Positions 61,937 to 62,204 of a DNA stretch of 64,000 nucleotides are shown piece by piece (within the stretch, counting starts at the first letter, position 1; every line of letters starts with the position of its first letter). Made by a program: the position numbers and the translations under genes. The notes below the pieces were generated by a model that made no database searches, had not been told where the DNA came from, and saw only the letters and a list, made by a program, of their open reading frames with translations. This DNA comes from Clostridiales bacterium (GTDB lineage: Bacteria > Bacillota > Clostridia > Oscillospirales > Oscillospiraceae), in assembly GCA_022787565.1 (NCBI GenBank), contig JALFVN010000073.1:24265-88264 (forward strand), read 5' to 3'.

Positions 61937-62204
61937 AACAGGGAGGCGCGTGAACGCCTCCCTGTTGAGACCGTCAAAAAACTATGCTTTAATCACCGAA
62001 AACAGAGCCGCGGGGGAGCGCGAGGGGGTTAAGACCCACCTCGCGTTACAATGACCCGCCGCCAAAAAGCTTGAATTTTCAAGTTTTTTGGGCGAAGCAG
62101 CGTTTTGAAAGATTCAAAACGCTCGGCGGTTGAAGCGGTCAAAAAAGTCCCGACAGGACTTTTTTGACAAGCTGAACAGGGAGGCGCGTGAACGCCTCCC
62201 TGTT
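61937..62204 (-). mobile_element. Family-C element copy 3 (inverted), flanked by a perfect 30-bp duplicated hairpin
   Basis: The core is 61973-62168. The flanks aacagggaggcgcgtgaacgcctccctgtt at 61937-61966 and 62175-62204 are identical. Confidence 0.8.

Follow-up and report, generated by a model that had tools for sequence, protein, structure and literature searches.

A probable IS1182-family MITE flanked by duplicated gene-end hairpins in uncultured gut Clostridia

The Correia/NEMIS, RUP, ERIC, and BOX elements are MITEs that are non-autonomous, repeated, intergenic, rich in hairpins, and often co-transcribed with their neighbors. The element described here is likewise non-autonomous, repeated, intergenic, and hairpin-rich; however, its targets are defined by structure and its duplications are as long as a palindrome, whereas the classical MITEs use short sequence targets and make duplications of 2–9 bp. 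[quoted passage not shown] The sequences of these two MITEs are unrelated, and MITEPye1 is flanked by direct repeats of 4 bp, whereas whole hairpins of 19–42 bp flank the element reported here.

Targeting of hairpins is a habit of the IS1182 family itself (PMC3098183, PMC4923244, PMC5678879). The insertion sites of ISCbo5 in Clostridium botulinum are hairpins at the ends of genes (PMC3098183), and IS1272/TnSha1 of staphylococci inserts at terminator hairpins of varied sequence (PMC4923244; PMC5678879). For IS1272/TnSha1, as for the present MITE, structure and not sequence is targeted, breaks occur at or within the stem, and both orientations are found (PMC4923244; PMC5678879). The two differ in outcome, in that IS1272 insertion is ‘IR-replacing’, i.e., the hairpin is partly or wholly removed and no duplication is made (PMC4923244; PMC5678879), whereas the MITE duplicates the hairpin intact. 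Since IS1272 deletes its hairpin, the chemistry of the family at hairpins is not uniform (PMC4923244; PMC5678879). The preliminary description of the DNA studied here had pointed to an unusual hairpin-directed insertion; in light of these precedents, the behavior is unusual among ISs generally but is not unprecedented.

The window, by which we mean the whole 64-kb stretch of DNA that was analyzed, contains three copies of a transposase-less element with 85–92% identity (Table 1). Copy 3, of 208 bp, runs GAGACYGTCAAAAAAC...CTTTTTTGACAAGCTG, and alignment of the three copies with their flanks revealed the unit layout GAGACY-GTCAAAAAAC...CTTTTTTGAC-AAGCTG, in which GAGACY at one end and AAGCTG at the other are kept in all copies, both directly adjoining the duplications. 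A 196-bp core (61973–62168) had been delimited previously; it is present as described, but the conserved unit extends six bases further at each end. The core recurs, as had been noticed, at 17472–17665 and at 46417–46611, where it is inverted, with 85 and 92% identity to the core of copy 3, respectively. Terminal inverted repeats had been recognized as well, with a length of 9 bp; they are present, but the six extra conserved bases at each end make them imperfect repeats of ~16 bp. In the IS1182 orientation copy 3 is read on the minus strand, with its IRL-like end at 62174. Copies 1 and 2 each sit behind a plus-strand gene; taken as a whole, the element occurs in either orientation with respect to the upstream gene. 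It occurs in size forms of 208, about 284, and about 399 bp. No transposase is encoded, in agreement with the preliminary description: the element has no plausible ORF and gave no tblastn match to IS1182 transposases, and none of the ORFs of the long form is protein-like. Annotated plasmid and phage records gave no BLAST match to the long form, and a scan of viral contigs with GAGACTGTCAAAAAA returned 97 matches, essentially all of them expected by chance and none of them the element.

Table 1. Coordinates of the MITE copies, their parts, and the duplicated hairpins within the 64-kb window.
Feature	Position	Strand	Remarks
MITE copy 3	61967..62174	+	conserved ends abutting duplications; absent at same site in L042, L045
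Terminal inverted repeat, end a	61967..61982	+	GAGACCGTCAAAAAAC; consensus GAGACTGTCAAAAAAC; gut subfamily CAGTCTGTCAAAAAAC
Terminal inverted repeat, end b	62159..62174	-	reverse complement CAGCTTGTCAAAAAAG; 13/16 match to ISCbo5 right-end CAGATTGTTCAAAAAG
Target hairpin, left copy	61937..61966	.	AACAGGGAGGCGCGTGAACGCCTCCCTGTT; 12 nt past ABC ATPase stop codon
Target hairpin, right copy	62175..62204	.	original TTTTG tail of presumed terminator follows
Helix 2 internal hairpin	62018..62045	+	GCGCGAGGGGG-TTAAGA-CCCACCTCGCG
Closing helix around two hairpins	62056..62129	+	CCGCCG/CGGCGG
Enclosed hairpin	62064-62089		AAAAAGCTTGA-ATTT-TCAAGTTTTTT; compensatory changes
Enclosed hairpin	62099-62123		AGCGTTTTGAA-AGA-TTCAAAACGCT; compensatory changes
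Subterminal hairpin	62137..62168	+	GGTCAAAAAAGTCC-CGACA-GGACTTTTTTGAC; stem invariant in 29 copies, loop free
MITE copy 2	46410..46617	-	3' of ABC-3 permease gene (45547-46356)
Copy-2 duplicated hairpin	46380-46409 + 46618-46647		CAACGGGCGG(T/C)CCTGCGTGGCCGCCCGTT
MITE copy 1	17466..17671	-	flanks are diverged hairpin copies; empty allele in L294
Copy-1 duplicated hairpin, diverged copies	17434-17465 + 17672-17703		AACGGAGCGTATCGGTACAGATACGCTCCGTT

Copy 3 lies between two identical 30-bp copies of the hairpin AACAGGGAGGCGCGTGAACGCCTCCCTGTT, which has no other occurrence within the window, and copies 1 and 2 are each bracketed by a different duplicated hairpin of their own, 28–32 bp in length with a few mismatches. 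These observations of the preliminary description were all reproduced. The gene upstream of copy 3 (61125–61925) encodes an ABC-transporter ATPase (Pfam ABC_tran), and the location of the target hairpin 12 nt after its stop codon suggests that the hairpin is a terminator. Its earlier assignment as the terminator of the ABC operon fits this position, but a simple terminator scan does not flag the hairpin, because merely four T residues follow it.

The same locus was followed in other samples of the species by means of contigs that encode exactly the ABC ATPase of the window. At the copy-3 site two of the loci (L042 and L045) lack the element and contain one hairpin, AATCGT[AACAGGGAGGCGCGTGAACGCCTCCCTGTT]TTGCGCC, and at the copy-1 site a single hairpin, AACGGAGCGTATCGGTACAGATACGCTCCGTT, is found without the element in L294. 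Empty alleles are present, then, at two of the three window sites in other strains of the same species. The copy-3 site is filled with the 208-bp form between two hairpins in the window and in L051, and with the 399-nt form in L044, L046, L047, and L050; L044 is the sole contig that spans the whole 399-nt form, and it has the same two hairpins on its sides. The one-hairpin, element-free alleles at the copy-1 and copy-3 sites therefore identify the hairpin as duplicated target DNA and not as a part of the element, which the preliminary description had proposed and for which it had itself predicted such alleles. A separate observation from the copy-1 site is that the window copy differs from L294 by clustered A-to-G changes, which lie on the strands predicted to be newly made.

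The same arrangement is common among copies elsewhere. A scan of MAGs with an invariant 20-mer, using one genome per species, returned 41 loci, ~38 of which are true copies, residing in six uncultured Clostridia/Oscillospiraceae MAGs. Carriers include Ca. Limivicinus LOHA37_bin.003, UMGS1206, UBA7103, SUG867, SRR11551376_bin.30, and the species of the window itself. For the duplication count in these loci, the element boundaries were re-set by the conserved ends. The expectation that copies usually possess flank duplications was upheld in 24 of the 32 testable MAG-locus copies, in which the direct repeats abut the 208-bp unit at an offset of 0–1 on both sides; their sequence is different at every locus, and each is itself a hairpin. 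A metagenome scan with a 19-nt end sequence identified at least 120 contigs, mostly from gut samples, and among the matches listed 20 further copies (19 distinct sites) with a duplication were found in 72 testable end pairs. Across at least 43 distinct sites from MAGs and metagenomes, among the matches listed, the duplication is 19–42 bp long (median 31). Its extent coincides with the whole palindrome: the first and last bases of the duplication pair with each other at 18 of 24 MAG and window sites, and the next bases outward are complementary at merely 6 of the 24, which is the chance level.

About a quarter of the MAG copies and, among the matches listed, more than half of the metagenome copies have no clean duplication. 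They fall into three groups, with a hairpin on one side, with hairpins that differ between the two sides (L017, L051), or with repeats of 5–14 bp, and they may have originated from decay, from recombination between copies, or from chimeric short-read assembly. Hairpin loss of the IS1272 type was not encountered in general, as most MITE copies have an intact hairpin on either side and the empty allele has one intact hairpin; the minority of copies with a one-sided hairpin could represent an IS1272-like mode or decay. Two further features of the flanks were recorded. The loop is flipped between the two copies of the duplicated hairpin in L004, L246, and, roughly, L028. Duplicate hairpins that have diverged from one another still pair within each copy, e.g., in L040, L216, and L272. 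Finally, the element occupies orthologous positions in MAGs of different species (L003/L026, L004/L005, and L020/L029).

Six autonomous ISs of the IS1182 family, including ISCbo5, were examined for comparison, and these have ends CAGAYTGCTGACAAAG, a hairpin next to one end, and duplications of whole or near-whole hairpins, 14–30 bp in length. The ISCbo5 copy used is located on plasmid p3 (NC_015418). Its transposase, of 454 aa, contains the Pfam domains DUF772 and DDE_Tnp_1_6, and the closest relatives of this protein are named IS1182-like ISCno1-family or IS1182-family transposases. The left end of ISCbo5 is CAGGCTGTTGATAAAC, followed by a hairpin, and the right end is ...GGAGGCTTTTTGAACAATCTG (reverse complement CAGATTGTTCAAAAAG); the 30-bp direct repeat that flanks the p3 copy constitutes most of a 38-bp hairpin. 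The five further members comprise one 1584-bp IS that is present at many sites and four from viral or prophage contigs. They too have ends CAGAYTGCTGACAAAG, and their whole-hairpin duplications, of 14–29 bp, follow the palindrome in length.

Among these, ISCbo5/ISCno1 (ISBma2-like; C. botulinum group III and C. novyi) offers a close counterpart to the MITE. Its ends CAGGCTGTTGATAAAC and CAGATTGTTCAAAAAG are like the MITE ends CAGCTTGTCAAAAAAG and GAGACTGTCAAAAAAC, CAGCTTGTCAAAAAAG sharing 13 of 16 positions with the right end of ISCbo5; in both elements a hairpin of this kind follows the end, gene-end hairpins are the sites of insertion (PMC3098183), and the p3 copy has its 30-bp hairpin duplication. 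In contrast to the 208-bp, gene-free MITE, ISCbo5 is autonomous and ~1.6 kb in length, it duplicated 30 of the 38 hairpin bases on p3 whereas the MITE usually duplicates the whole palindrome, and its host is Clostridium whereas the MITE resides in uncultured Oscillospiraceae-like gut Clostridia. A position matrix was derived from the 12 ends of the six autonomous elements. The MITE consensus ends have matrix scores of 8.1 and 8.7, within the top 0.04% of window 16-mers, and end a of copy 3 itself scores 3.1, within the top 0.25%. The resemblance of the MITE ends to IS1182 ends is moderate, extending to 10–13 of 16 positions and to scores of 8–9 versus 19–26 for real ISs. Sibling MITEs in the same genomes have scores of 19–20, as high as those of real IS ends. 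These siblings begin CAGACTGTAGACAAAG (L026) and CAGATTGTAGACAAAG (L030), and both have duplicated flanking hairpins; one shares a hairpin with a member of the 208-bp family, with which it stands in tandem, and the other has a copy of the 208-bp family nested inside it. In L024, an additional element whose ends are of this type has a 15-bp flanking repeat that is not a clean hairpin. We place the element in the IS1182 family on the combined weight of its ends, their architecture, the uncommon footprint, and the existence of sibling families; it is probably a non-autonomous MITE of this family that is moved in trans and targets palindromes.

Genes for IS1182 transposases, sought by tblastn, were found neither in the 64-kb window nor in ~0.3 Mb of sequence from the genome and from loci of the same species, and the 0.89 Mb of element-bearing metagenome loci (120 loci, chosen by end sequence among the matches listed) likewise had none. 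An all-against-all comparison of the ORFs at element loci revealed orthologous synteny only and no repeated transposase. In L228, two element ends enclose 1.8 kb of DNA that was considered as an autonomous copy and was rejected, as it consists of ordinary genes and includes no transposase. Polymorphism of the site within the species nevertheless implies that an autonomous partner should be present in the population. This cognate IS would be expected to measure ~1.6 kb, to have ends CAGCTTGTCAAAAAAG...TTTTTTGACAGTCTC, and to be flanked by a duplicated hairpin.

The interior of the MITE is highly structured. The four internal hairpins of the core that had been described are present, and the compensatory change between aaagcctga/tcaggcttt and aaaacttga/tcaagtttt is real. 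In architecture, the subterminal hairpin corresponds to the one that autonomous IS1182 elements carry beside their left end, and its stem is invariant, as would be expected of an end that is bound by protein. Compensatory changes are found in three internal helices (2, 4, and 5), and in the 284-nt and 399-nt forms the tip of helix 2 gives way to one or two additional hairpin modules. In 29 copies, 51 pairs are predicted, of which 14 exhibit double changes, and 98% of the cells are paired. None of 500 shuffles reached the observed percent paired, the double changes, or the covariation score; the number of further pair types was not above that of the same shuffles of the 29 copies. Controls in which the register was slid were reduced to 37–51% paired, and the fold has z-scores of -13 and -11 on the two strands relative to shuffled sequence. 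G-U pairs (16 cells) are about as frequent as A-C mismatches (11 cells), so neither strand is favored, as expected for DNA palindromes. A joint alignment of the 208-nt family with a 192–194-nt gut subfamily was left out, its quality being insufficient for the analysis of structure. This internal structure may be kept for transposition, for termination after loss of the T tail of the first hairpin, or for both. A simple terminator scan did not call the internal A/T-flanked hairpins as terminators, and we therefore make no claim that the element contains proven terminators.

So strong a fold, with compensatory changes in three helices, is what might be seen in a structured noncoding RNA gene or 3'-UTR element situated between two terminators, the hairpins then being part of the transcription unit. 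We regard this explanation as highly improbable. Covariation is equally expected for the DNA palindromes of a transposon, and the parity of G-U and A-C cells provides no sign of an RNA strand under selection. The flanking hairpins differ between loci and match within a locus, alleles with one hairpin and no element exist, both orientations relative to the upstream gene occur, and the inverted-repeat ends are held in common with IS1182 elements. Rfam returned no match for the whole window at gathering thresholds, and for the 399-nt form searched at E values up to 10 it returned merely sub-threshold matches at chance level. The suggestion of a structured-RNA-based element made in the preliminary description was consequently not sustained, in view of the Rfam result, the terminal inverted repeats, and the polymorphic presence of the element. 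A different proposition is that the IS1182-type MITE has also been co-opted by its host, with its internal A-tract/stem/T-tract hairpins acting in bidirectional termination or in RNA stability; selection for this role would account both for the covariation and for the retention of both flanking hairpins. The compensatory changes in helices 2, 4, and 5, the continued pairing of diverged duplicate hairpins, and the orthologous positions across species are all compatible with such a role, and because insertion strips the T tail from the first hairpin, some downstream terminator would be needed. Against it, the simple terminator scan calls neither the internal hairpins nor the target hairpin, the coexistence of empty, 208-nt, and 399-nt alleles within one species marks the element as dispensable, and processes at the DNA level, or the requirements of transposition, can also preserve palindromes. 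Co-option seems rather unlikely to us, and it is a minor, additional hypothesis that would add to the explanation of the element as an IS1182 MITE without replacing it.

Other enzymes that recognize or use DNA hairpins were also considered as the source of the footprint, namely HUH transposases (IS200/IS605, REP/RAYT), tyrosine recombinases (integron attC, Xer-like), and integrases of the Cas1 type. One end of the element carries a hairpin, and Cas1-Cas2 is known to duplicate a palindromic repeat of ~30 bp by attacking its two borders. The likeness of the latter lies in the outcome, since staggered attacks at the borders of a palindromic segment of about this length are followed by gap filling; however, Cas1-Cas2 belongs to an unrelated enzyme class with a fixed repeat length and a fixed site, and no cas genes are implicated for the MITE, so that the comparison is an analogy only. 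The MITE duplication is specific to each locus, and its length, 19–42 bp, varies with the palindrome; such variation is at odds with a fixed molecular ruler and speaks against integration of the Cas1 type as by a CRISPR repeat or casposon. HUH transposons and site-specific recombinases operate without duplication of arbitrary targets and without terminal inverted repeats, and the HUH single-strand transposons insert 3' of a short fixed motif; an element of the HUH kind is disfavored by the inverted-repeat ends together with the long locus-specific duplications. The ends instead match those of DDE-type IS1182 elements, which produce the same footprint and encode a DDE transposase only, and we give the involvement of another hairpin-acting enzyme very little credence. 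Group IIC introns insert after terminators and make no duplication; an intron of this kind was rejected on the latter ground and because the element is too small and is devoid of intron features.

A mechanism can be proposed for the IS1182-family MITE that would relate its ends to its footprint. The MITE would have kept just the two ends that a transposase recognizes, i.e., the ~16-bp imperfect repeats and the hairpin at one end, with hairpin-rich filler between them. Its movement in trans would presumably depend on a DDE transposase (DUF772 + DDE_Tnp_1_6 type) whose gene lies elsewhere, in the genome or in the population. As with autonomous IS1182 elements, the target is chosen by the shape of the DNA and not by its sequence, as a palindrome able to extrude as a hairpin or cruciform, which in practice means the terminator hairpins behind genes. 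With both element ends bound by the transposase, strand transfer would join one end to each base of the palindrome, the two joints lying on opposite strands and at the 5' sides. In an extruded cruciform the two attacked phosphates would face each other at the four-way junction, and a stagger that is short in space would span one full palindrome when measured along the sequence. Filling of the two single-stranded gaps would then copy the entire palindrome, so that the duplication would be as long as the hairpin, whatever its length. Attack at the 3' sides would instead discard the palindrome, as with IS1272, which might reconcile the two behaviors seen in the family. The substrate for the same steps could alternatively be a hairpin formed on single-stranded DNA at a replication fork. 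Trans-mobilization and the cruciform or junction geometry of strand transfer are our inference.

A broader version of this proposal is that for transposases of the IS1182 type the structure of the DNA alone decides which target is chosen and how long it is taken to be, with a duplication equal to the palindrome in length, 14–42 bp across ISs and MITEs. We put this forward tentatively, as a reading that could well prove too strong. On the structure-only reading, the loop flips and the clustered A-to-G changes noted above would be scars of gap repair across a template that folds on itself. In the literature searched, no statement was found of a rule for the IS1182 family whereby the duplication comprises the whole palindrome.

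The element does not constitute a new category, as hairpin targeting by IS1182 members and MITEs derived from this family are both on record; the correspondence of the duplication to the whole palindrome may be an under-described rule across the family. For the locus examined here, the perfect duplication of a 30-bp terminator on the two sides of a small repeat acquires a concrete and checkable cause. The MITE family, with its 208-, 284-, and 399-nt forms and its sibling families in uncultured gut Clostridia, has not been described before. For annotation, its importance is that these elements double the terminator hairpins behind genes and vary between strains of one species; in addition, they disrupt assembly from short reads and can be taken for genes of small RNAs. 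At least 43 MITE sites, together with the sites of the autonomous IS1182 elements, form a natural data set in which duplication length tracks palindrome length, a clean signature of structure-directed target choice that is open to direct biochemical test.

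When the duplicated hairpins that flank copy 1 of the 208-bp MITE in the window were compared with the single hairpin of the empty allele in strain L294 (L-numbers denote loci fetched from MAGs, same-species samples or metagenome contigs), four positions differed. All four changes were A-to-G on the strand predicted to be newly made by gap repair: the upstream hairpin has three, all in the plus strand, whereas the fourth affects the minus strand of the downstream hairpin. These changes may represent a scar of repair, or else a coincidence. Paired duplicated hairpins can also have identical stems and mutually reverse-complementary loops (ATAATT vs. 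AATTAT; AAA vs. TTT), and among the 43 distinct insertion sites with hairpin duplication, such loop flips are exact in two cases and approximate in one. Where the duplicated hairpins have diverged (L040, L216, and L272), the changes are often compensatory within each copy, and both copies therefore still fold.

At some MITE and IS copies, the hairpins on the two sides are unlike, as is the downstream DNA; either copies have recombined with one another or the metagenome assembly is chimeric at the repeat. A human-gut subfamily of 192–194 nt terminates in a 42-nt perfect palindrome consisting of two back-to-back end repeats (CAGCTTGTCAAAAAAGTCCnnnnGGACTTTTTTGACAAGCTG), which resembles a junction of abutted ends. 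Duplicated hairpins (ACATCCCCGCC...GGCGGGGATGT) also lie on both sides of a 300-nt segment in L017 that is devoid of IS1182-like ends and contains a 27-amino acid ORF, MPITLTIHIFGYTVTIRVKKQNRHSAK, with a ribosome-binding-like site in front of it.

Other repeats are present in the window and in strains of the same species. The units of a second family, ~85–105 nt each, follow the pattern GTCATCCTGAG...GGATCCCGT...CACGGGATTCTTCACCGCTGCGCGGTTCAGAATGAC and vary in tandem copy number among strains: the window and L042 each have a single unit, whereas L044 and L045 have at least four. The intergenic regions of the window are dotted with GC-rich, REP-like hairpin repeats, GTAGGGGCCGGCGTCCCCGACGGCCC and GTAGGGGCGGCCCTGCGTGGCCG, and a further element, bounded by the inversely oriented hairpins GCTCTCCCTCTGGGAGAGC and GCTCTCCCAAAGGGAGAGC, contains ~360 nt of extra internal sequence in the window relative to strain L294.

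Locations of the hairpin variants, MITE arrangements, and other repeats
Feature	Location
Copy-1 duplicated hairpins	window 17434-17465 (upstream), 17672-17703 (downstream)
Loop flips	L004 6207-6236 and 6521-6550; L246; L028
Mismatched flanking hairpins	L051 911-1160; L017 4801-5115; L283, L285, L289
192–194-nt human-gut subfamily	L162, L165, L170, L176; further metagenome loci
Hairpin-flanked 300-nt segment	L017 4438-4801
Second repeat family	window 62316-62400 and 52720-52804; L044 ~2000-2500; L045 beyond 3801
REP-like hairpin repeats	window 53242-53269, 55877-55904, 57399-57426, 55968-55998, 57337-57367, ~46690-46730
Further element	window 17743-18193 (extra sequence ~17800-18160)
Nested MITEs	L030 5883-6506
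Tandem MITEs	L026 3469-3969; ortholog L003 4257-4758
Lone fragment	L003 4764-4800; L026 3975-3990

MITEs also occur in nested and tandem arrangements. In L030, a hairpin within a larger MITE of ~330 nt (CAGATTGTAGACAAAGC...TTTACTTG) hosts a nested 208-bp MITE, and the larger MITE in turn lies between duplicated copies of a 26-bp hairpin. The orthologous loci L026 and L003 carry a tandem pair from different MITE families, and immediately after the right-hand hairpin lies a lone fragment, CAGCTTGTCCAAAAAGCTTGAATTTTCAAGTTTTTTT, in which an end-like motif is fused to a copy of the A/T-flanked hairpin internal to the 208-bp MITE. Because the tandem MITEs share the middle hairpin, one hairpin is present three times at this locus, which implies that the second insertion hit a target that had already been duplicated.
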